NCBI GenBank assembly: GCA_023380475.1
Contig: JAMCRD010000003.1
Coordinates: 28,397-92,396, forward strand
Direction of reading: 5' to 3'
From: Patescibacteria group bacterium
GTDB taxonomy: Bacteria; Patescibacteriota; Minisyncoccia; UBA6257; Colwellbacteraceae
Length of the DNA stretch: 64,000 bases
Shown piece by piece: positions 5,689-30,245 of this stretch. A model generated the notes under the pieces. It made no database searches and had not been told where the DNA came from. It was given only the letters and a program-made list of their open reading frames with translations. Made by a program: the position numbers and the translations under genes. Position 1 is the stretch's first letter; each line of letters begins with the position of its first letter.

Positions 5689-6450
5689 ATGACATCTTAT
5701 GTAAAAACTGAAGAGGAGATCCAGCGCATTCGGCGATCGGCCAAGATATTGGCCGCCGTTCTTCGTAGACTGACCGCGGTTTCTGCTCCAGGGGTTACCC
5801 TGATCGAATTGGATACGATGGCTAGAGGACTTATTGAGACCGCCGGTGGTAAGCCAGCCTTTTTAAACTATCGTCCTTACGGTGCGAGTAAAGGATTCCC
5901 TTTCACTCTTTGCGCTTCAGTAAACAACGTTATCGTGCACGGTCTGCCGTCAGGTTATGCCTTGAAGTCAGGCGACCTATTGAAGTTGGACCTCGGGGTC
6001 GATTGGGAAGGAGGAATAAGCGATTCAGCCATTACGATACCCATAGGGCGAGTAGACAGCGAGGGACTTCGGCTTACTAAAGTTACCAAACTGGCTCTCC
6101 GGGAAGGGATAAGGGCTGCCAAAGATGGCAATAAAATAGGGGATATAGGATTTGCTATCGAGCGGGCTGCCAGCGCCGCTGGGTTCAAGGTAGCCGAAGG
6201 CCTCACGGGCCACGGCGTAGGGAATGAACTACATGAGGAACCTACTATATATAACTATGGCAAGCCGCACACTGGAGTTCCCCTCAAGAACGGCATGGTT
6301 ATAGCCATAGAACCTATGATTAACATCGGCAGCGCGGCGATAAAACAACTCAAAGATGACAGTTACGTAACCGCTGATGGAAGTCTTTCAGCTCACTTTG
6401 AGCATACCGTCCTGATTACTAGAACGGGAGGTGAAGTGCTCAGCGCTTAG
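5689..6450 (+). CDS. map: Methionine aminopeptidase type I
   Basis: Motifs VIVHG, DLGVDWEG, GHGVG, IAIEP and EHTVLIT. Follows adk. Confidence 0.93.
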   Translation: MTSYVKTEEEIQRIRRSAKILAAVLRRLTAVSAPGVTLIELDTMARGLIETAGGKPAFLNYRPYGASKGFPFTLCASVNNVIVHGLPSGYALKSGDLLKLDLGVDWEGGISDSAITIPIGRVDSEGLRLTKVTKLALREGIRAAKDGNKIGDIGFAIERAASAAGFKVAEGLTGHGVGNELHEEPTIYNYGKPHTGVPLKNGMVIAIEPMINIGSAAIKQLKDDSYVTADGSLSAHFEHTVLITRTGGEVLSA

Positions 6451-7766
6451 TTGGTTATGGTATAGCTGAAAAGTCCTTCTGGAGTAACGTAATAAACGGT
6501 ATCGTTGGCTGCGTTATAGTCAAACTGGCTGACATTGTGCGAAATTATATCGCTGTTTACGGGAGTGCCGGATGCTACTTCGATAAAACTTAAATCACTG
6601 CCCTGCAAGACAAAGAGATGTGAGTTGTCTTTGTACCACTTCAGACTGTTTATGGCCGGACCGGAGTTGATCAAAGTAATGTAACTATCGTTGTTCGTAT
6701 TGTAGACTGACAGTTTACCGTCGTTGTTACCAAAGGCAATGTACTTGGAATCGCCTGAGAAAGCGGTCAAATTGGCGCTGTTGGCAATACCGACGAGACT
6801 ATTGGTACCGGCATCGAACAGGTACAGCTTACCAGTTCTGTTGATAACAGTTATCAAGGATCGCGAAGGGGACTCGTTAAGGCTCACCGGCGAGATAGCG
6901 GTGTCGGTGGCGAACTTTAAGACGGTTGTCGTTGCATTAAGAACTAGGTTATATCTCCACAAACCTGTGTTGTCGGCCCAAATGAGCTGATCGTAACTTG
7001 CAGCGAAATCGGCCACTTTAGTGGCGATCCGGTCAAGCTGCAGGTTAGTTGTATCCATGACATACAGGCCATCTGTGGCGTTTATGATTACGCTAGAGTC
7101 ATCGAAGGGATTAAAAGCTATTTTGCTTATAGCTACTCGTCCCGCTAGATGCAGCTGGGATACTCTAAGTTCCGATAATAACGACGTTAGATTGAGGCTC
7201 GAACTGGCGTTGGATAAATCAACCAGGTGATACGCTGTGCCTGCATTGTTGCTGGTTATAACGCGGCCAGCTTGCGAGGAAGCGACAACCCTGGCCCCCG
7301 GTATTGGGCGGCTATTAAATAAGATTGACCCGTTTTTAATTGTCAGTAGTTGTCCATCGGCTATAGTAAATCCCGTGGCATTCTTACTAATCAACTTGCC
7401 TGAGTTTGTTGTAGGCAGAAGGATTATGTTGTCGAATACAGTTACCTCGCTGGATTTCACCTCAGCTGTTTTCGCCCAAGAAGTGTATCCGTTATCACTG
7501 ATGGTCAGATAGTAACTCCCTGGTACAAGCTCCGAGATCAATGTCCCCGACTGGAGCAGGCCAGACTGGTTCTTGACTGGCTTGCCATCCAAAGTTATGC
7601 TCGCGTCCGAAGGGGTGCTGTTTATATATACGCCTCCAATTACCTGAAACGAACCGGTCTGGAAATCGAAACGCCACCCCTGAGAATATAAGACTATTAT
7701 TGTACCGAGTATCAAAAATACGACTACGAATATATAGAAGAGGAGTCTTCTAGTTCCTAGAGACAT
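6447..7766 (-). CDS. Membrane-anchored PEGA-domain / beta-propeller-like protein
   Basis: N-terminal TM helix, a PEGA-like segment (YINSTPSDASITLDGKPV..GSYYLTISDNGY), then a long beta-rich region. Confidence 0.55.
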   Translation of the reverse strand: MSLGTRRLLFYIFVVVFLILGTIIVLYSQGWRFDFQTGSFQVIGGVYINSTPSDASITLDGKPVKNQSGLLQSGTLISELVPGSYYLTISDNGYTSWAKTAEVKSSEVTVFDNIILLPTTNSGKLISKNATGFTIADGQLLTIKNGSILFNSRPIPGARVVASSQAGRVITSNNAGTAYHLVDLSNASSSLNLTSLLSELRVSQLHLAGRVAISKIAFNPFDDSSVIINATDGLYVMDTTNLQLDRIATKVADFAASYDQLIWADNTGLWRYNLVLNATTTVLKFATDTAISPVSLNESPSRSLITVINRTGKLYLFDAGTNSLVGIANSANLTAFSGDSKYIAFGNNDGKLSVYNTNNDSYITLINSGPAINSLKWYKDNSHLFVLQGSDLSFIEVASGTPVNSDIISHNVSQFDYNAANDTVYYVTPEGLFSYTITN

Positions 7767-7786
7767 TATCCCCTATAATAGGCAAG

Positions 7787-9055
7787 ATGAAATTCGTTGT
7801 AAATGGAGGCAAAGAACTGAACGGCGAGATCGAAGTTCGTGGTTCGAAGAACGCCGCGACCCCCATCATAGCCTCGACCCTTTTGACATCAAGACCCTGC
7901 ATAGTAGAAAACATACCGCTCATAAGCGATGTTTTTACCACTCTCCAGATCCTGGAAAGTATGGGTTCGGAAATAAGCTGGCTAGGCGAAAGAAAAGTAA
8001 GGATAATTAATAGAGACATAGACCCTACCAGAGTTGACCAGCGCTTAGTGCGCAAAATAAGATCTTCCATTCTTATTCTTGGGCCGCTTTTGGCCAGATA
8101 CGGGGAGGTTGTTATAGCCACTCCGGGTGGCTGCCAAATAGGCACACGTTCCATCAGTGCTCACCTTGAAGCCATAAAAGATTTAGGTGGGGTTGTCGCC
8201 TATGATCCTAAAGAGGATCTGTATGAAATAACTAAACCAGTTGGGCAATGGGGTAATGGAGTTGTACTTAAGGAGTTTAGTGTGACGGCCACTGAGAACA
8301 TAATGATGCTGGGAGCGTTGTCTGCCCCACTTAAAATAGAGTTATGCGCCGCTGAGCCTCATGTTCAAGAGTTGGGATATTTTATGAATATTCTAGGGGC
8401 TGACTATCGCGGTCTAGGTACTCACGAGATTGTCATAACCCGCGGCATTGAGAATCGTAACCAAGAAATCAGTCACCGTATCGCAAGCGACTATCTTGAG
8501 GCTGGAACTTTCATGGCTCTGGCGGCGATGATTGGCGACAAGGTCAGGATTAAAAACGTCCCTATCGATTACTTGACCGCTGCTATCCAAAAACTAAGAG
8601 AGTTCGGTGTTTTGCTGAGCATAAGCGGCGACAGTATACTAATCACCGGCGACCGAAAGCGTTTGACAAGCACGAACGTGCAAACCTTGCCGTATCCTGG
8701 CTTCCCAACTGATCTTCAAGCGCAATTTGGAGCCATGGCAACTCAATGTCAGGGTGACAGCCTTATTTTTGACACTCTTTACGAGGGAAGATTAAAATAC
8801 ATTGAAGAGCTAGTTAAAATGGGTGCACGGGCTAAAATTCTTGACCCTCACCGTGCGCTAATATCTGGTCCGACCAAGCTGCACGGAGCCGAAATCGAGA
8901 GCCTCGACCTGCGGGCCGGAGCCACATTGGTTATAGCAGCTTTGGCGGCCAGTGGCGTAAGTTCTTTGGGGGGCATTGAGCAGATTGACCGCGGTTACGA
9001 GCATATTGAAGAACGTTTGAAGTTATTAGGTGCGGAGATAGAAAGAAACAATTAA
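7787..9055 (+). CDS. murA: UDP-N-acetylglucosamine 1-carboxyvinyltransferase
   Basis: 422 aa. N-terminus GEIEVRGSKNAATPIIASTLL, and PGGCQIG with the active-site Cys region. Confidence 0.93.
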   Translation: MKFVVNGGKELNGEIEVRGSKNAATPIIASTLLTSRPCIVENIPLISDVFTTLQILESMGSEISWLGERKVRIINRDIDPTRVDQRLVRKIRSSILILGPLLARYGEVVIATPGGCQIGTRSISAHLEAIKDLGGVVAYDPKEDLYEITKPVGQWGNGVVLKEFSVTATENIMMLGALSAPLKIELCAAEPHVQELGYFMNILGADYRGLGTHEIVITRGIENRNQEISHRIASDYLEAGTFMALAAMIGDKVRIKNVPIDYLTAAIQKLREFGVLLSISGDSILITGDRKRLTSTNVQTLPYPGFPTDLQAQFGAMATQCQGDSLIFDTLYEGRLKYIEELVKMGARAKILDPHRALISGPTKLHGAEIESLDLRAGATLVIAALAASGVSSLGGIEQIDRGYEHIEERLKLLGAEIERNN

Positions 9056-9061
9056 ATTTTT

Positions 9062-10069
9062 ATGTTCACGAATAGGATAGGCATAGATTTAGGTACAACT
9101 AATACGGTTGTTTTTGTGCCCGGACGAGGTTTTGTGGTTAATGAGCCGACCATTGTCGCTCTCAGTCTGCCGGACAACAACGTTATGGCCGTCGGCAGAG
9201 AGGCTAAAGAAATGATCGGCAGAACTCCGGGGGATATAGCTGCCTATCGGCCATTAAAGGACGGTGTGGTTGCTGACTACTATATCACCAGAGCTATGCT
9301 TAAGTATTTCATAAACAAGGCCACGGGGCCTTGGAACTTGGTTAAACCGGATGTTGTCATATCGGTACCGGCAGGGATTACGGCTACAGAGCGACGGGCG
9401 GTTATCAATGCTGCCCAGGAAGCAGGAGCCAAAAACGCCTATGTTGTGCGCGAGCCGCTGCTGGCCGCCCTTGGCGCAGGGATAGCCATTAATTCATCTT
9501 CAGGGAATATGATCATTAATATCGGCGGCGGAACTTCTGAAGTCGCCGTTATTTCCTTGGGAGGGATAGTTTGCTGGTCCAGTATAAGAGTGGCTGGCAA
9601 TAAATTTGACGAGGCCGTCATGGGCTACATTAAGAAGAAATATGGTGTAGCTATAGGAGAACAGAGTGCTGAAGCTATAAAGATATCAGCCGGTTCAGCT
9701 ATGCCTCTTAAGACCAAGCTTGAGGTTAACTTCCGTGGCCGAGATTTGGTGAGTGGCCTACCTAAGGACCTGACGATAAATTCCAACGAGATAGCAGAGG
9801 CTTTAAACCCTTATCTGGCCGATATAGCAGCGGCGGTCCAGGGGGTTTTCAACCAAACCCCTCCGGAACTGGTGGCAGACGTCATGGAAAAGGGGATTAT
9901 TTTGTCAGGCGGAACAGCCAACCTGCGCCACATTGACGGATTCTTCGAACGAATCTTTAACGTGCCAACGTACGTCGCTGAGGATTCAATTTTATGTGTA
10001 GCTAAAGGCTCCGGGATAATCATCGATCACCTTGATGTCTATAAAAGAACGCTCCTCAACAAGAGATAG
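9062..10069 (+). CDS. mreB: Rod shape-determining protein MreB (copy 1)
   Basis: Actin-fold motifs IGIDLGTTNT, NEPTIVA and IINIGGGTSEVAVIS. Confidence 0.92.
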   Translation: MFTNRIGIDLGTTNTVVFVPGRGFVVNEPTIVALSLPDNNVMAVGREAKEMIGRTPGDIAAYRPLKDGVVADYYITRAMLKYFINKATGPWNLVKPDVVISVPAGITATERRAVINAAQEAGAKNAYVVREPLLAALGAGIAINSSSGNMIINIGGGTSEVAVISLGGIVCWSSIRVAGNKFDEAVMGYIKKKYGVAIGEQSAEAIKISAGSAMPLKTKLEVNFRGRDLVSGLPKDLTINSNEIAEALNPYLADIAAAVQGVFNQTPPELVADVMEKGIILSGGTANLRHIDGFFERIFNVPTYVAEDSILCVAKGSGIIIDHLDVYKRTLLNKR

Positions 10070-10082
10070 GGCGCCTAAACCT

Positions 10083-10907
10083 ATGGCAGGTTACGACCGG
10101 CTTTGGGGCACTTTTGTTGAAAAGGCTGACAATCACAGTCTTTTTCACGGTTATATCTTCTTTGGAGAACAGGGGGTCGGCAAGTTCACTTTTGCTAATT
10201 GCTTGGCCAACTATCTTGAGTTCGACCGCATGGATAAACAGGACACGCCTCGCAGCGAAACCTTAATGGTTAGCGTTGGCAATGGGAAAGAAAGTATAGG
10301 CATAGATACGATTCGAGACATAAAATATTTTCTATCTGAGCAGCCATCAGCCTCAGCTTATCGAACGGTACTAATCGACGGGGCTGATAATCTTACCGAC
10401 CAAGCTCAGAATGCTCTATTAAAGGTATCAGAAGAACCCCCGGCGCATGGACTATTGATATTGATTACCAATGATCTCGATAATCTCTTGCCCACCCTTC
10501 AATCGCGCTTCCACAAGATTTACTTCCCAAGGCTCTCTAAAAACGAGATAGCTAAGCATTTAGAATCAATACTGAAATTGGATAAAGAAGCGGCTGAGAA
10601 AATAGCTAAGATTTCTTTTGGCAAAATGGGACGCGCTTTACAGTTGGCTGCAGGTGACGAACTAGATGCAAGACAAAAGGCCAGGAAGGCACTCAAAGAT
10701 CGACTTGCGGCTAGGAAATTGCTGGCTGACGCCGTAGACGATCCAGAGCAGCTTAATGCTATTATTAAAGAGTTACTGGCCGAGTTAGCCTTAAACCCTC
10801 AGCAGAATCTCACAACCATTAAAGAGCTATTGCGTAGGAATACGTTGAACAACTCGCTCAACACCAACAAGAGACTACAATTGGAAGCTGCCCTATGGAC
10901 TATATAA
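10083..10907 (+). CDS. holB: DNA polymerase III delta' subunit
   Basis: AAA+ clamp-loader motifs (FFGEQGVGKFTFA, LIDGADNLT, LPTLQSRF). The ATG at 10083 avoids overlap with mreB. Confidence 0.75.
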   Translation: MAGYDRLWGTFVEKADNHSLFHGYIFFGEQGVGKFTFANCLANYLEFDRMDKQDTPRSETLMVSVGNGKESIGIDTIRDIKYFLSEQPSASAYRTVLIDGADNLTDQAQNALLKVSEEPPAHGLLILITNDLDNLLPTLQSRFHKIYFPRLSKNEIAKHLESILKLDKEAAEKIAKISFGKMGRALQLAAGDELDARQKARKALKDRLAARKLLADAVDDPEQLNAIIKELLAELALNPQQNLTTIKELLRRNTLNNSLNTNKRLQLEAALWTI

Positions 10908-20023: not shown

Positions 20024-20767
20024 ATGCAAAACAATTTATACCAAGGCGCAAAATTAGTTCTAGTCATAGTAATAATAATCGCAGCCTGTGCGGCAGTGTA
20101 TGGATTGGTAAGTTGGGGAAATTCACTGACTCCAGCTAAAACCATGACCGTCACGGCGGACGCTCAAACCAATGTCTCACCAGATCTAGCAACAGTGTCT
20201 TTCTCTGAAGTGACGATAGGCAGTGACCCTACCAAAATTGAGGCTGCGAATGCAACTCAAATCAACAGCGCTATAAATTTTGTAAAACAGGAGGGTATAA
20301 GCTCTGAAGATATCGCTACCACTAACTATAACTTGTCGCCGAATTATGACTACACTCGCAAAGACGGTAAGGTATCAATAATAAGTTACACGATAACTGA
20401 GACAGAAACGCTTAAAATCAAAGACTTCACTAAGATCGCACCGATATTAGCAGGACTGGTAAACCTCGGCGTAAACCAAATAGGTCAGGTTACATTCAGC
20501 GTCGAAGATCCAGATAGCCAACTAGCCAGCGCGAGAAAAGAAGCCTTCGCCAAAGCTCAGTTAAAGGCTCAACAGATGGCGGTGGATAATGGCGTCAAAT
20601 TAGGGGGGATAATAAGTGTATCAGAGAATACTAATAACATAGGCCCATTACCAATCTATAATACTATGTCGGCCGCCGGCGTCAGTGGTAGAGCCGTTAC
20701 TCCGACCATAGAACCAGGAACCCAGCAACTAACGGACTACGTAAGCATTACTTATGCCATACAATAA
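20024..20767 (+). CDS. SIMPL/DUF541-family exported protein
   Basis: N-terminal TM or signal segment. Repeated alpha/beta halves typical of SIMPL 26-kDa periplasmic proteins (NYNLSPNYDY..., IEPGTQQL). Confidence 0.65.
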   Translation: MQNNLYQGAKLVLVIVIIIAACAAVYGLVSWGNSLTPAKTMTVTADAQTNVSPDLATVSFSEVTIGSDPTKIEAANATQINSAINFVKQEGISSEDIATTNYNLSPNYDYTRKDGKVSIISYTITETETLKIKDFTKIAPILAGLVNLGVNQIGQVTFSVEDPDSQLASARKEAFAKAQLKAQQMAVDNGVKLGGIISVSENTNNIGPLPIYNTMSAAGVSGRAVTPTIEPGTQQLTDYVSITYAIQ

Positions 20768-20780
20768 ACGAGGGATTGAG

Positions 20781-22196
<1,416 letters not shown>

Positions 22197-22301
22197 TGGT
22201 TGCTTATTTCTTAGTTCTGTGTTATATTCTGAATTAGAGTGAGTGGTGAACAGCCCTCGGCGATGATATCGATCGAGGATTGTCCCTTAGCACTGTTTGG
22301 T

Positions 22302-22329
22302 CAAAACCCCTTCTTCGGAGGGGGTTTTG
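22302..22329 (+). terminator. Stem-loop terminator after glycine-rich gene 1
   Basis: CAAAACCCC-ttcttcggag-GGGGTTTTG, followed by T-rich sequence and the pgk -10 box. Confidence 0.55.
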
Positions 22330-22346
22330 GTTGTTATAATAGAAGC

Positions 22347-23408
22347 ATGACTTATTTGCTAAGGGTTAATCTCGACATTGAAGACAAAGATCCAACCGGC
22401 TCGCAGCGCTTTAAAACGGCTGTAAGCACGATAAACTACATTCTTAAAGGCGGGCATAAAGTAGTAATCCTCAGCCATTTTGACCGCCCCTCGAAGTATG
22501 ATCGCAGGCTTAGCTTGTCGCGTTTTCAACCGTTTCTGCAGAAGAAGTTGGGTAAGACGGTGGTTTTCTTTCCGCAGTTTGATTTCCCTAAAATTAGAAG
22601 GAGTATCCTTACTTCCGAAAATCACGTCTTCCTGCTGGATAATCTCCGATTTCTGCTTGGCGAAACTAAAAATGATCCCGCGACCGCATCACAATTGGCC
22701 TCCTTGGGAGACAGGTACATAAACGACGATTTTGCTACTGCTCACCGCGAAGCAGCCTCGACCGTAGCTATAACAAAACTAATGCCCAGTTCTCCCGGAC
22801 CGACGCTTTTAAGTGAAGTAGCCCATCTTACTAAAGTGACAGTTCATCCCCGAAAGCCAGTTACATTAATAATCGGCGGCGAGAAAATGAAAGACAAAAT
22901 AGGCGTGGTACACCACATGCTAAATAAGATAGATCATGTTCTTATTGGCGGAGGACCCGCTAACACATTTCTGTTGGCTGAAGGCAAGAACATTAAGAAG
23001 TCAATCTGCGAACCGGATATGCTAGCGGAAGTTAAAAAACTTATGAAAAATAAGAAAATCGTAACACCAATGGATTCGCGATGGGGTAGCGACAAAATCT
23101 TGGATATCGGTCCGAAAACAGCAAAAGAGTTCTCAAGTATTATCAGAAAATCAGCTACCGTAATCTGGGGCGGGCCCATGGGTTACTTTGAAAATCCGCA
23201 TTTCGCCAAGGGTTCGTACGATATAGCTAGAGCCTTAGCTGCTTCACATTCATTTTCAGTTGTTGGAGGCGAAGAAACAGGGATGGTAATAAATCACCTT
23301 AAACTCAACAACAAGATAAGTTTTCTGTCGACTGGCGGCGGCGCCATGTTGGATCTCTTAGCCGGCGAAAGAATGCCTGGTCTGAATGCGTTAAAGATTA
23401 GGTATTAG
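22347..23408 (+). CDS. pgk: Phosphoglycerate kinase
   Basis: Motifs VILSHFDRP, NDDFATAHR, GGGPANTF and STGGGAMLD. ATG 22347 lies 6 nt after TATAAT. The track start at GTG 22239 would read through the terminator. Confidence 0.9.
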   Translation: MTYLLRVNLDIEDKDPTGSQRFKTAVSTINYILKGGHKVVILSHFDRPSKYDRRLSLSRFQPFLQKKLGKTVVFFPQFDFPKIRRSILTSENHVFLLDNLRFLLGETKNDPATASQLASLGDRYINDDFATAHREAASTVAITKLMPSSPGPTLLSEVAHLTKVTVHPRKPVTLIIGGEKMKDKIGVVHHMLNKIDHVLIGGGPANTFLLAEGKNIKKSICEPDMLAEVKKLMKNKKIVTPMDSRWGSDKILDIGPKTAKEFSSIIRKSATVIWGGPMGYFENPHFAKGSYDIARALAASHSFSVVGGEETGMVINHLKLNNKISFLSTGGGAMLDLLAGERMPGLNALKIRY

Positions 23409-24855: not shown

Positions 24856-24891
24856 TATAATCAATAAGTAGAAATGCTAACCATTGATTGT

Positions 24892-27800
24892 ATGTCTAAA
24901 GTCAGATTAAGTAGGGCACTAAAGATATTTCTACTAACAGCATCCATAATAATAGCCGCTGGCGTTTTCCCGTCTGCATCTTTTGCTTCTCAAATAATAA
25001 CCGTAGCTTTCAACTATACCGGTACAGTACAGTCGTGGACTGTACCTACTGGCATAACTTCTATTACGATCTCCGCCTCAGGCGCGGGAGGCGGCAGCGG
25101 TGGAGCTGGAGGAACCGCCACGGGGACTTTAACTGTAACTCCAGGGGCTACCTACTACATTCTAGTCGGCGGTGGCGGAGGTAATGTACCTTGGTGCACT
25201 TCCACAGGTGGAGCTGGTGGGTATGGCGGCGGAGGAGCTGGCGGATCTTCTAACTGTAGCCAAGGTTATAGTGCCGGTGGAGGAGGCGGTGGTATGACAT
25301 GGTTCGCCCCGAATAACACATTTAATACGTCATTGGTCATTCTTGTAGCCGGAGGCGGAGGTGGAGGTGCAGGACGCTCTGGGGGAGCGTCCGGTGGTGG
25401 CTCTGGCGGAGGAACGAGCGGTGGCAATGGGGCTAATTATACTGGATTCGTAAACCCTGATGGAATAGGTGGCACACAAACTGCCGGAGGAGCAACTGGA
25501 GGTTCGGCTGGGCAAGGTGGAGCAGGCGGTTCGCTTGGGAACAACGGCAACGGTGGTGGTGGAGGAGGAGGTGGATATTATGGTGGCGGAGGTGGTGTAC
25601 TAAACAATGGTTGGATTATCAACCCTGGTGGAGGAGGTTCATCTTATTTGTCCCCATCCCTTACTTTAGCGACCACAACGGTTGGAACTGGCGTAACTAG
25701 CGGAAACAATGGATATCTAAACATATACTACACTCTATCCTTGCCGACAGTTTCCTCTTTAACAGTTACAAATGCTACCACCTATACCAGTGCTACCTTA
25801 GGCGCCAACGTGACGTCTGACGGTGGTGCTAGTTTGACATCTGTAGGAATATGCTGGGGGCTTTCTTCATCATCTATGTCTAATTGCAGCGCAGATAGCA
25901 GTGCTACTACAACTGGTGCTTATTCAATGAGTATTACTGGTTTGCCAAGCAATACCACCATTTACTTCGAAGGTTATGCTACGAACGCAGTTGGTACGGG
26001 ATACTCCACTTATGGGACGTTCACCACTAATCATATTTTCCTAAACTCGGGCACTTCGTGGACCGTCCCTTCAAACTGGAATAATGCCAGTAATACCATT
26101 GAAGTAATAGGGGCAGGGGGCAACGGAGGTACATCAGGCTACGCATATGGTGGTGGAGGTGGTGGAGGTGCATACTCTAGAGTTACAAACCTGGCTTTAA
26201 CTCCAGGAAATTTGGTCCAGTACAATGTTGGGCAAAATAGCGGAACCAGAGATACGTGGTTTAACGGTACATCGCTATCTTCAGCATCTGTATCTGCTCA
26301 AGGCGCTTCAGACGGTCAGTATTTTGCTAATGGTGGCGGAAGTGGCGGGCAAGCGTCGAGTGGTATAGGTTCAATAAAATACTCTGGCGGTAGCGGAGCA
26401 GCTGGTGGAGGCGGAGGAACGCAATCTGGTGGCGGGGGTGGAGGTACAGCTGGACCAAACGGCCATGGTAATAGCGGGTCTGTCGGTGGTGGTGGATTAG
26501 GAGGAATTGGTGGGTCGGCAGACGCGGGATACGGCGGCGGAGGTGGTAGCGGTGGTATACCAACTGGTGCCGGTGGGAATGGTGCAGAGTACAACTTCTT
26601 CTTTGGCAGCGGAGGAGGCGGTGGAGGAGCCGGTTCGTTAACTAATACCACAAATTCAGGTAGCGGCAGTGGTGGTCTATATGGTGGCGGAGGAGGCGGT
26701 GGAGGTGTAGATGGTGGTCCTTGGTCAGGACAAAACGGGCTAATAGTAATTACTTACTCGCCGCCTCTTCCAGTTCCTACAGTTACAGCTATATCACCGA
26801 ACAATACTCAAAACAATGCGACCACGACAGTATCTTCGGTAACTGGTACGAACTTCCAATCAGGAGCAACTGTCATGCTAACCATGAGCGGCCAGTCTAA
26901 CATAAACTGTACTGGGTTTACTTTCACTAACTCGACTACATTATCAAATGGCACCTGCCCAACCAACGGTGCAGCAGCTGGCAATTGGAATGTTGTCGTT
27001 ACTAACCCTGACACACAGACAGGAACTTTAGCTAATGGTTTTACTGTGTTCGTTTATACTCCCGCTGCTAACGGTTCGCTTGTCTCCAATATCTTCGATA
27101 CCGGTTACTCGAGTGGCGTAGCTTTCAATTCAATAATGTGGCAAGGATCTCTAGGGGTTGGCTCTTCTACAGTGCAGTTTCAATTTGCGGCATCCAACTG
27201 TCAAAATGGAGCGTCGAACTACCCAAGTTGCACTGGTAGTTCCGGCATCATTTCAGGACCAATCGATTCCACCAACTACTGGGGTTGGAATGACACGCTT
27301 GGCTGGCTGAACTTCTCAACCGCCGCCGTGGGATCAAGCCACCTGACAGGCTGGGCCACAGTCCAGTCGAATGGCGACTACATCGCCCTTGATTGCTCGA
27401 CATTGCCACCCAGCAATAGCAACAACTGCTCCGGCACAGGCAATTTCACCGTGTCCGACAATAGCAATAACTTGGCCGGATGGGGCTGGAACGATACCTA
27501 CGGTTGGATCAGCTTCTGCGGCGATTCTTCAGGTAACTATTCCACCTGGAATGGCACCAATTGGGTTTGCCCCTCTAACCCAACGTATGAAGTGACTGTC
27601 AATCCCTCTACGGGGCAGTTCCACGGATTTGCTTGGAATGACATATTAGGCTGGATTTCATTCAACTGCGCGGACGTAAACGGCGGGACATGCAGCCCAA
27701 GTTATTACGTACAAGTCGACAATGCAAGCTCTGTTTGGAGCTTCACCGGCCCAGACGACACGTCTAACACGTATTACACAGCCGGTCCAAACACTCCGAT

Positions 27801-27921
27801 TCCATTAGTTGGGTCGTACTACGATAATAACCGTTACTACCGCTACGAGATATTTATAAACAAGGCAGCTGGGGCTACTACTCCTGTAGTTAATAGCATT
27901 ACGGTCAATTGGAGCCCATAA
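24892..27921 (+). CDS. Large secreted glycine-rich multi-domain protein
   Basis: Signal peptide ending SFA-SQ. Two Gly-rich modules (FNYTGTVQSWTVPTGITSI..GAGGG; GTSWTVPSNW..GAGGNGG), an IPT/TIG-like domain and 3 C-terminal GW.WND..GWI.F repeats. An alternative ATG lies at 24874. Confidence 0.8.
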   Translation: MSKVRLSRALKIFLLTASIIIAAGVFPSASFASQIITVAFNYTGTVQSWTVPTGITSITISASGAGGGSGGAGGTATGTLTVTPGATYYILVGGGGGNVPWCTSTGGAGGYGGGGAGGSSNCSQGYSAGGGGGGMTWFAPNNTFNTSLVILVAGGGGGGAGRSGGASGGGSGGGTSGGNGANYTGFVNPDGIGGTQTAGGATGGSAGQGGAGGSLGNNGNGGGGGGGGYYGGGGGVLNNGWIINPGGGGSSYLSPSLTLATTTVGTGVTSGNNGYLNIYYTLSLPTVSSLTVTNATTYTSATLGANVTSDGGASLTSVGICWGLSSSSMSNCSADSSATTTGAYSMSITGLPSNTTIYFEGYATNAVGTGYSTYGTFTTNHIFLNSGTSWTVPSNWNNASNTIEVIGAGGNGGTSGYAYGGGGGGGAYSRVTNLALTPGNLVQYNVGQNSGTRDTWFNGTSLSSASVSAQGASDGQYFANGGGSGGQASSGIGSIKYSGGSGAAGGGGGTQSGGGGGGTAGPNGHGNSGSVGGGGLGGIGGSADAGYGGGGGSGGIPTGAGGNGAEYNFFFGSGGGGGGAGSLTNTTNSGSGSGGLYGGGGGGGGVDGGPWSGQNGLIVITYSPPLPVPTVTAISPNNTQNNATTTVSSVTGTNFQSGATVMLTMSGQSNINCTGFTFTNSTTLSNGTCPTNGAAAGNWNVVVTNPDTQTGTLANGFTVFVYTPAANGSLVSNIFDTGYSSGVAFNSIMWQGSLGVGSSTVQFQFAASNCQNGASNYPSCTGSSGIISGPIDSTNYWGWNDTLGWLNFSTAAVGSSHLTGWATVQSNGDYIALDCSTLPPSNSNNCSGTGNFTVSDNSNNLAGWGWNDTYGWISFCGDSSGNYSTWNGTNWVCPSNPTYEVTVNPSTGQFHGFAWNDILGWISFNCADVNGGTCSPSYYVQVDNASSVWSFTGPDDTSNTYYTAGPNTPIPLVGSYYDNNRYYRYEIFINKAAGATTPVVNSITVNWSP
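27277..27663 (+). repeat. Three spaced copies of a 13-15 aa GW-WND-GW motif at the C-terminus of the glycine-rich protein
   Basis: YWGWNDTLGWLNF (27277-27315), LAGWGWNDTYGWISF (27472-27516) and FHGFAWNDILGWISF (27619-27663). Confidence 0.85.
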
Positions 27922-28359: not shown

Positions 28360-28395
28360 AGGGGCAGCCTCACGGGTTTGCCTCTTTTCTTTTAT
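28360..28395 (+). terminator. Putative intrinsic terminator
   Basis: GGGGCA...TGCCTC stem (one G-U pair) followed by TTTTCTTTTATT. Confidence 0.45.
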
Positions 28396-28403
28396 TCAAA
28401 AGT

Positions 28404-28412
28404 TGATATAAT
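28404..28412 (+). promoter_or_regulatory. Extended -10 box (TGaTATAAT) of rnpB
   Basis: It ends 7 nt before G28420, the first base of the P1 pairing of the RNase P RNA. Confidence 0.55.
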
Positions 28413-28417
28413 AATCC

Positions 28418-28826
28418 TCGCCAATCCAGACGGTAGCTCTATCACATCCCACGAGCCCTTATGATAGCTCTTTATATCGGGAATGGATGGAGAGGAAAGT
28501 CCGGACACTCTCTTGCCGCAAGGCGAGATAAAAACTATACGGGCTAACTGCCCGCCGCAGCAATGCGAGAGGTGCGAACAGAAACGTTCCGATCCGAAAG
28601 GACCAGGAGGACCCAATCCCAACGTTGAAGGTCTAGTTCCGTTATAGGGACAAAAAGACGGAAATGAAACGACTAAATCCTTATGGAGTGCAAGGCCGAG
28701 TCCTGAAAGCGTAAAGCCAACAGGAAGTGCCGCTAGATCCTGAGAGCAATCGATGGACCAGACAAATTGCCGTCTCCTCTGGCATAACGTCGGAGCAGAC
28801 AGAATCCGGCTTACGGATTGGCTATT
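28418..28826 (+). ncRNA. rnpB: RNase P RNA (bacterial type A-like)
   Basis: Universal GAGGAAAGTCCGGAC at about 28491-28505 and ACAGAATCCGGCTTA at about 28798-28812. P1 pairing joins GCCAATCC (28420-28427) to GGATTGGC (28815-28822). Confidence 0.9.
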
Positions 28827-28827
28827 C

Positions 28828-28859
28828 AAAATAACCTTGGTTAATACCAAGGTTATTTT
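28828..28859. terminator. Bidirectional intrinsic terminator (13-bp perfect stem)
   Basis: AAAATAACCTTGG-ttaata-CCAAGGTTATTTT between rnpB (+) and the convergent nuclease gene (-). Confidence 0.85.
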
Positions 28860-29651: not shown

Positions 29652-30245
29652 CTAGATGGCGTCTTTAGGTAAGGACCAGATATAAATTCCTATCAGAAGG
29701 CAGATGGCCGCCATAATTATAAACAATACCGGGAATCCCAGCTCTTCAATGATCAATCCTCCGATGAGAGCTGATAAACCAACAGCGATGGAGGTCACAC
29801 CCTCATAGCGGCTCCACTGTTTGAGAGACCGTTCGCTGTCGGTATTCTTGGTATAAAGCGAGTCAAAGGCCGGCGCGCCGACAGCTGCGCCTATACCCCA
29901 CAATAGTTGGGTCACAATAAGCTGAGGGAGATTGGTCATAAAGGCATAACTCACGAATACAGCTCCTCGAATGACATAACCTAGGGCTACCAAGCGTTCC
30001 CTGTGATGAAAAACTCGCAGTCCCCAGTCCGAAAACACCAAGACCAAAACGCCGGATACAATCGAGAACACGCTCCAAGAGATACCAGCGAAGATTACAC
30101 CGCCCCCTATTTTCTCTATGAATAGAGCATAGAATGGCGAAAACAAGCCCGTCGCGAATACAATAAAGGTGTTTACGGTCAGAAGTATCTTTAAACCGCG
30201 GCTAAATATTGACTTGCTGTAGATATGCCCAACTAAATCGTCCAT
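29652..30245 (-). CDS. Six-TM membrane protein, MFS-half-like
   Basis: 197 aa polytopic protein with helix spacing like an MFS half. No specific motif was recognised. Confidence 0.45.
   Translation of the reverse strand: MDDLVGHIYSKSIFSRGLKILLTVNTFIVFATGLFSPFYALFIEKIGGGVIFAGISWSVFSIVSGVLVLVFSDWGLRVFHHRERLVALGYVIRGAVFVSYAFMTNLPQLIVTQLLWGIGAAVGAPAFDSLYTKNTDSERSLKQWSRYEGVTSIAVGLSALIGGLIIEELGFPVLFIIMAAICLLIGIYIWSLPKDAI

Follow-up and report, generated by a model that had tools for sequence, protein, structure and literature searches.

A Patescibacteria-specific C-terminal module associated with type IV pilus operons, found on a predicted modular secreted protein with ALK/LTK-type glycine-rich domains

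Host-attached life is the presumed habit of Patescibacteria, and the best-supported device for their attachment is the type IV pilus. Pilus-tip components are known in these bacteria from one Saccharibacteria model only, TM7x; its candidate tip proteins PilX1 and PilX2 have a beta-jelly-roll or beta-propeller domain, and no signal for the prepilin peptidase PilD is predicted in either (PMC11623550). Among other systems, PilY1 is located with minor pilins at the tip (PMC8833165), modular type IV pilins with lectin modules are known (PMC8179133, PMC9934059), and gp38 of T-even and S16 phages uses a polyglycine-II sandwich as a receptor-binding scaffold (PMC12032242). Here we describe a gene at 24892..27921 on the plus strand of a 64-kb window (the whole stretch of DNA analysed, 64,000 nucleotides of contig JAMCRD010000003.1 from a Patescibacteria group bacterium of the Colwellbacteraceae), whose product ends in a module that recurs throughout the pilus operons of this group and is here joined to glycine-rich domains resembling those of the receptor kinases ALK and LTK.

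The open reading frame (ORF) closes with a stop codon at 27919-27921 and codes for 1009 amino acids (aa) from the ATG at 24892 (MSKVRLS...), from which all residues are numbered; an alternative in-frame ATG at 24874 would give 1015 aa. An earlier reading of the DNA letters (hereafter the original prediction) had proposed a large secreted protein with a signal peptide, and this is borne out by a single plus-strand ORF with a putative Sec, signal peptidase I-type signal (24892..24990, aa 1-33), in which inspection of the sequence identifies a K/R-rich n-region, the h-region IFLLTASIIIAAGVF and the c-region PSASFA↓SQ. The signal is followed by glycine-rich domain (GRD) A, an FN3-like domain, a second glycine-rich domain B, a TIG/CoaZ immunoglobulin (Ig)-like domain and a C-terminal module of 289 aa. 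Every module that the original prediction named is present, while the FN3-like domain at aa 286-380, a fourth C-terminal hairpin and a jelly roll had been overlooked. All 14 cysteines of the protein fall into short-range pairs, as expected of an extracellular protein. Its sequence contains none of the other anchors sought (LPXTG, lipobox, C-terminal transmembrane segment), and a class III prepilin signal (G↓F/Q-T/S-L-I-E) with a pilin module is likewise absent, the N-terminus being of the Sec type. Overall, the gene is real and codes for a large, presumably exported, modular, adhesin-like surface protein of the Patescibacteria, or candidate phyla radiation (CPR).

The most distinctive part of the protein is its C-terminal module, in which three repeats of a GW-WND-GW type had been noticed. 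The WND motifs lie at aa 797, 864 and 913 (YWGWNDTLGWLNF, GWGWNDTYGWISF and GFAWNDILGWISF), occur within the window in this ORF only, and consist of residues that are invariant or nearly so across 93 aligned homologs, a degree of conservation indicating that the repeats are not due to chance. Secondary structure and the family consensus together define four hairpin units with the pattern 'y.V.v...G.l.GWAWND.iGWIsF.C', the second of which is degenerate. On the plus strand, which carries all features described below unless stated otherwise, these units are located at 27250..27324 (repeat 1, YWGWNDTLGWLNF), 27325..27399 (repeat 2, aa 812-836, LTGWATVQSNGDYIALDC), 27442..27522 (repeat 3, FTVSD..LAGWGWNDTYGWISFC) and 27580..27672 (repeat 4, YEVTV..FHGFAWNDILGWISFNC), and three of the loops following the hairpins carry Cys pairs. 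Structure prediction of the module with AlphaFold2 gave a confident model for aa 721-1009 from a 65-sequence alignment (predicted local distance difference test, pLDDT, 86.7), and likewise for the repeat region alone from 93 sequences (pLDDT 85.5, predicted template modelling score 0.84). The module is accordingly modelled as a galactose-binding-like jelly roll plus an eight-stranded barrel of four Trp-rich hairpins. The barrel (27241..27735, aa 784-948) is predicted to interrupt the jelly roll at one of its loops, with ...VQFQFAASN before it and WSFTGPD... after it; the first half of the jelly roll lies at 27052..27240 (aa 721-783; SNIFDTG...NSIMWQG...VQFQFAASN) and the second half at 27736..27918 (aa 949-1009), ending in the NWSP (VNWSP) typical of the family.

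No nameable domain had been recognized in this region, and our searches lead to the same result. Neither the module nor the repeat core alone had a match in scans of Pfam, NCBIfam or PHROGs, the family profile gave 0 matches at E<=1 among PDB sequences, and a Foldseek comparison of the two-domain model with the PDB returned nothing significant (best E=0.06, TM<=0.21). The repeat therefore did not map to any well-described carbohydrate-binding or anchoring family. This bears on the possibility that the module is a cell-envelope anchor that binds the wall or S-layer of the producer, in the manner of SLH, LysM, GW or choline-binding modules. The Trp-rich hairpin repeats are indeed superficially like choline-binding or GW repeats, and the module is always found at the extreme C-terminus, joined to diverse extracellular domains, as would suit an anchor. 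However, there was no Pfam match to GW, CW_binding, SLH or LysM at E<=10, and the predicted barrel and jelly roll are neither solenoid nor SH3-like. On the same grounds (no hidden Markov model match at E<=10, and an eight-stranded barrel as the predicted fold), we rejected an assignment of the repeats to the Listeria GW or choline-binding types.

A survey of the distribution of the repeat module showed that it belongs to a large Patescibacteria family whose genes are associated with type IV pilus operons. A word-indexed search retrieved 480 clusters (90% identity), nearly all of them unnamed or 'hypothetical' Patescibacteria proteins and only one of them (P0054) with a Pfam domain, while an exhaustive profile search of clusters at 50% identity retrieved 8,778 at E<=1e-3, 4,129 at 1e-10 and 477 at 1e-30. 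The family of the C-terminal module is thus large, specific to Patescibacteria and without an entry in any curated resource searched. Its loci in the survey described below come from Colwell-, Wolfe-, Lipton- and Harrisonbacteria, from Paceibacterota and Minisyncoccia, and from many metagenome-assembled genomes labelled 'uncultured Candidatus Saccharibacteria'. One contig labelled 'Spirochaetia bacterium' (QYPD01000015.1) carries family, prepilin-like and PilM-like genes typical of Patescibacteria and is likely a mis-binned CPR contig.

The typical family member is a Sec-secreted protein of about 300 aa (178 of 257 representatives have at most 360 aa). In the stand-alone members inspected, the Sec-type signal stops just ahead of a conserved ATNI...WAWND, and 78 of the 175 short members with an initial Met have an ATNI-like motif at about residue 30. 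At the other end, 146 of the 257 representatives finish with NWSP and most others with N[WY]Sx. Unlike the inserted barrel of the window protein, that of most relatives lies ahead of the jelly roll. There are also 'double' members of about 450 aa (P0002, P0014 and others), which have one barrel at the N-terminus and another within the jelly roll, suggesting that the barrel is a mobile sub-module within the family. In multidomain proteins the family module occupies the extreme C-terminus, behind partners that include F5/8-type-C domains, DUF2341 with fn3, DUF2341 with TIG and, as read from the sequence, an NHL-like propeller (P0243); its combination with ALK-type glycine-rich domains was found only in the window protein and its ortholog. 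A further class of long members begins with a prepilin signal: 25 of the 31 representatives of 471-560 aa, as well as several longer ones, start with G↓QS[LIV][LIV]E, which identifies them as fusions of a prepilin-like gene with the family gene (e.g. P0086, P0257, P0301). Such fusion to a minor pilin is seen in a sizeable minority of lineages.

All four contigs that were looked up singly share one gene order, from pilB and pilC through a pilin and a prepilin-like gene to the family gene, followed by small genes and pilM/N. In a context survey of GTDB genomes that covered 78 species-level loci, 74 of the loci have one or more pilus markers, 50 of the 54 whose upstream sequence reaches 5 kb or more have PilB or PilC, and 72 of the 78 have a prepilin-like homolog, either as the immediate upstream neighbour (median gap 137 nt) or in fusion with the family gene. 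The upstream gene carries an N_methyl prepilin motif, while the downstream gene of about 500 aa is a PilM-PilN fusion. The family is hence a near-constant member of the minor-pilin block in Patescibacteria pilus operons. Because it sits after a minor pilin, or is fused to one, it is most likely part of the pilus-tip complex, as a non-pilin or grafted head component. The cell-envelope anchor considered above would leave both the prepilin-like neighbour at 72 of 78 loci and the fusions to that gene unexplained, and we regard it as quite improbable. Modules of the types found in the window protein are themselves found on CPR type IV pilins: P0123 is a pilin with two TIG domains and a GRD-A, P0144 a pilin with a GRD-A, and P0143 a pilin with two Gly_rich_2 domains. 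As a separate observation, Patescibacteria pilus operons also contain large Laminin_G_3 proteins, one between pilB and pilC (locus L004, 2409-4718) and one just upstream of the family gene (locus L005, 5689-6999), which are possibly further tip or accessory adhesins.

The window protein is related to this operon-borne family through P0001, its closest operon-encoded relative, to which its C-terminal 289 aa are 68% identical (E=2.7e-120). P0001 also has the inserted barrel and is encoded in a pilB-pilC-pilin-prepilin-like operon, and in view of this likeness the window module looks like a paralog of the operon copy of its lineage, that is, the window gene looks like an out-of-operon paralog of the pilus-operon family. 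Two other relatives, P0002 and P0003, were considered as pilus-operon copies from the same genome and discarded, as they come from other assemblies, on short contigs. A syntenic locus (L006, CAZLHU010000002.1), in which the neighbouring genes are conserved (aa identity of 78% for PGK, 64% for the DHH-family gene, 69% for RNase H, 78% for the PD-(D/E)XK nuclease and 83% for TypA), encodes a positional ortholog of 1527 aa at 6098-10678. This ortholog is 73% identical to the window protein in the C-terminal module and 70% in the TIG domain, and its order is signal peptide, two PF12810 domains (42.8 and 38.1 bits), TIG-like, DUF2341 (72.7 bits), two FN3-like domains and the family module. Comparison of the two architectures indicates that the ends have been kept while the domain cassettes in the middle have been shuffled.

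Ahead of the C-terminal module, the original prediction had likened the first glycine-rich module to the glycine-rich domains of ALK and LTK, and this resemblance extends to formal profile matches. Domain A (24997..25746, aa 36-285), placed from PF12810, LTK/ALK structure and PHROGs matches, scores 39.9 bits against PF12810 (ALK_LTK_GRD) when aa 35-288 are scanned alone, above the gathering cut-off of 24.5; on the full-length protein the score falls to 22 bits, below the cut-off, owing to bias correction. A profile built from 20 bacterial GRD-A homologs matches the GRD of human LTK (7NX0, residues 45-294) at E=6.6e-7 and that of ALK (7NX3) at E=1.5e-3 (about 2e-3), whereas a phmmer search with the single GRD-A sequence finds no match in the PDB, so that a profile is required to see the relationship. 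Since the profile of bacterial homologs matches both the LTK and the ALK structures, the assignment of module A as an ALK/LTK-type glycine-rich domain stands at the profile level.

GRD-A also matches three phage families of unknown function (phrog_7388, phrog_1589 and phrog_5811), and some homologs come from Caudovirales records (P0183), which raises the question of whether the protein is a phage-derived receptor-binding protein or a prophage remnant. Against such an origin, the housekeeping flanks are syntenic with those of L006, no phage-specific Pfam family was found among the scanned neighbours, the C-terminal module has no PHROG match and the protein carries a putative Sec signal peptide. 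Based on the housekeeping synteny we rejected this explanation, which we consider very improbable indeed.

Domain A is followed by a beta-sandwich at 25747..26031 (aa 286-380) recognized by its sequence pattern, which is 52-54% identical to the two tandem FN3-like copies of the ortholog in L006; as it has no Pfam match, its designation as FN3-like is tentative. The second glycine-rich module that had been proposed is found at 26035..26769 (aa 382-626). This domain B consists of 35% Gly and is described as Gly_rich_2 (PF21722)-like by virtue of its homologs: its first 65 residues or so are 62-65% identical (E~1e-14) to two segments of P0129, one of which lies within the PF21722 match of that protein, and on PF21722 (cut-off 24.3) P0122 and P0129, both of them close homologs, obtain 24.2 and 26.9 bits. 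BLASTP detects no similarity between modules A and B, and only profile-profile comparison connects them (hhalign probability 95.9%, E=5.7e-9, over the first 56 columns or so only), through a common N-terminal core, 'WTVP...I.v.GaGG...PG..y.i.VG'. Judged by this core, A and B look like two subfamilies of one glycine-rich superfamily. Lastly, the domain at 26770..27051 (aa 627-720) had been read as an IPT/TIG-like Ig domain, and its scores are borderline for TIG (PF01833, 19.9 bits with a cut-off of 20.9) and above the cut-off for the NCBIfam model CoaZ_rpt_PGGG (NF058597, 32.6 with a cut-off of 30). The TIG copies of the pilin P0123 share about 69% identity with it.

Taken together, these observations lead us to favour, tentatively and with slightly less than even confidence, a model in which the window protein is a modular adhesin that is exported by Sec, docked by its C-terminal module and equipped with glycine-rich domains as host-binding surfaces. 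In this model, Sec would export the protein and the signal peptide would be cleaved, after which the C-terminal module would dock non-covalently on the same minor-pilin partner as the operon-encoded copy. In this way the protein would be held at the pilus tip or on the cell surface, where the glycine-rich domains, presumed to be polyglycine-II lattices and held on FN3/TIG spacers, would form variable surfaces for binding host-cell ligands. A docking role is suggested because the window protein has no other anchor, because the C-terminal module stays constant behind many different binding domains, and because gene fusion argues that module and pilin touch. A host-binding role for the glycine-rich domains is suggested by the use of a polyglycine-II scaffold for receptor recognition in phage gp38 and by the binding of ALKAL ligands to the GRDs of ALK and LTK, and the shuffling of the middle modules between orthologs would fit a rapidly diversifying host-interaction protein.

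The same C-terminal module could instead be a glycan-binding head. Under this alternative, the window protein would be a pilus-independent adhesin or lectin, free or loosely bound to the surface, that has borrowed its jelly roll and barrel from a minor pilin. The jelly roll resembles discoidin, CBM32, the ligand-binding domain of Eph receptors and phage receptor-binding domains, the module is distal in the pilin fusions, as the lectin module is in PilC of S. sanguinis (PMC9934059), and the window gene is situated outside any pilus locus. On the other hand, a secreted protein of 1,009 aa with no other anchor would diffuse away, and a constant C-terminal module on varied N-terminal domains is typical of anchoring or docking devices and not of heads. 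We consider a pilus-independent lectin possible but on balance unlikely.

Several further points weigh against docking of the window protein at a pilus. The gene lies outside any pilus operon, among housekeeping neighbours: tblastn searches for PilB, PilC, PilM, pilins and pseudopilins found none within the window, a regular-expression search of the window for prepilin motifs found none either, and the L006 locus is likewise without a pilB, pilC or pilin-like gene. The model presumes a pilus operon with its own family copy in the source genome, and the proposed link between module and pilin is drawn from gene order and gene fusions; the pilin fusions fit an adhesive head equally well as a docking device. 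The putative signal peptide of the window protein was called by eye. As for the glycine-rich domains, module B has no direct Pfam match (aa 378-633 at E<=0.1, aa 392-628 at E<=10) and does not reach the gathering threshold, and the polyglycine-II structure of both domains is presumed by analogy, the evidence in the window protein itself being the poly-Gly runs of its sequence. Function, for the family and the window protein alike, is something that we infer.

The surroundings of the window gene comprise a SIMPL gene, a Gly-rich ORF, PGK, a DHH-family gene, RNase H, the RNase P RNA, a PD-(D/E)XK nuclease, a short major facilitator superfamily (MFS) gene and TypA; a promoter/terminator scan around the gene found nothing above shuffled expectation. 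TypA and PGK are identical to, or share a 90% cluster with, NCBI proteins assigned to 'Patescibacteria group bacterium', in agreement with the CPR setting assumed in the original prediction, whereas exact look-ups of the window protein, from either ATG, gave no entry in the protein collection searched. The Gly-rich ORF corresponds to a second Gly-rich protein that the original prediction had placed nearby. Its 480 aa, of which 28% are Gly (20754-22196), include a hydrophobic segment at the N-terminus, and a 'GGTGATT...' stretch is reminiscent of phage tail fibres. It has no Pfam match, no similarity to module B by BLASTP and a weak PHROG match (phrog_13336, E=1e-5), and tblastn found no counterpart in the examined part of L006. 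The PGK gene (22239-23408) gives 389 aa when read from the first GTG, compared with 353 aa in the NCBI cluster representative, and the N-terminal 36 residues or so are probably untranslated. At 28421-28825 lies a bacterial RNase P RNA of class A (88.9 bits with a gathering score of 100, E=2e-27, model positions 1-367), a region with about 73% nucleotide identity in L006; given this match, the minus-strand ORF of 152 aa at 28392-28850 is probably spurious. The MFS_1 protein at 29652-30245 on the minus strand has 197 aa, about half the size of a normal MFS transporter. As it is 67% conserved in L006, it may be a genuine half-size gene and not a fragment.

The family provides a concrete candidate for a tip adhesin or adaptor of CPR pili across the Parcubacteria-type lineages. 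In the window protein, its module has been recruited onto bacterial ALK/LTK-type GRDs, and the shuffled middles of this protein and its ortholog are candidate host-specificity determinants; the protein also offers a bacterial setting in which the function of the GRD fold can be studied. A bolder extension, which we put forward as speculative and rather doubtful, is that the module is a universal 'plug' of the type IV pilus tip in Paceibacteria-type Patescibacteria, binding the prepilin-like minor pilin, with out-of-operon paralogs as interchangeable tip cargoes. If this were true, the window protein and its F5/8C-, DUF2341-, NHL- and TIG-bearing relatives would all be such cargoes, with which a tiny genome could re-arm one pilus with different host-recognition domains, ALK-type polyglycine-II domains included, and episymbionts would possess a modular host-range system.

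The GRDs of ALK and LTK bind ALKAL ligands, and no ALKAL-type ligand is known from bacteria. Module A and the ALK/LTK GRDs (7NX0, 7NWZ, 7N00) have in common a 'QsWtVP...I.a.GA.GG...G..LyI.VG' core followed by poly-Gly runs, but the window protein differs in being bacterial and extracellular, without a receptor kinase and without a TNF-like or EGF-like context. With phage gp38 the window protein would share a glycine-rich scaffold placed distally on an appendage for host recognition, a scaffold that is proposed to display variable loops (PMC12032242); gp38, however, sits on a tail fibre and not on a pilus-related module, and the likeness is drawn from description. The eight-stranded barrels of HpuA, TbpB, NHBA and hemophilin resemble the predicted barrel at the level of the fold only, with about 10% sequence identity, and have neither the four-fold hairpin repeat nor the disulfide-stapled loops of the window module.

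Among pilus-associated proteins, the family resembles PilY1/PilC in that its members are proteins with Sec signals encoded among the minor-pilin genes of a pilus operon. PilY1 nevertheless consists of a von Willebrand factor A domain and a seven-bladed propeller, a fold unrelated to the predicted jelly roll and eight-stranded barrel of the far smaller family proteins, and the window protein, whose gene is not operon-encoded, has no Pfam match to the PilY1/PilC-type propeller family. The fused members P0086, P0257 and P0301 are, like the modular pilins PilB and PilC of S. sanguinis, built from a pilin and a grafted C-terminal beta-rich, lectin-like module, although the grafted module belongs to a different, uncatalogued family and the window protein is of the Sec type without a pilin module. 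TM7x PilX1, a 'lectin-like' minor pilin of Saccharibacteria, is likewise encoded at a pilus locus and has a beta-jelly-roll at its C-terminus for which NCBI CD-Search has no entry, and the family may be comparable to it; no Trp-hairpin barrel has been described for PilX1, and this comparison is made by description only. In summary, the window protein is of a known kind, a modular extracellular adhesin whose closest analogues are the pilus-tip accessory proteins and modular pilins, whereas the family of predicted jelly rolls with four-hairpin barrels, its abundance and its tight coupling to minor-pilin genes were found in no curated resource.

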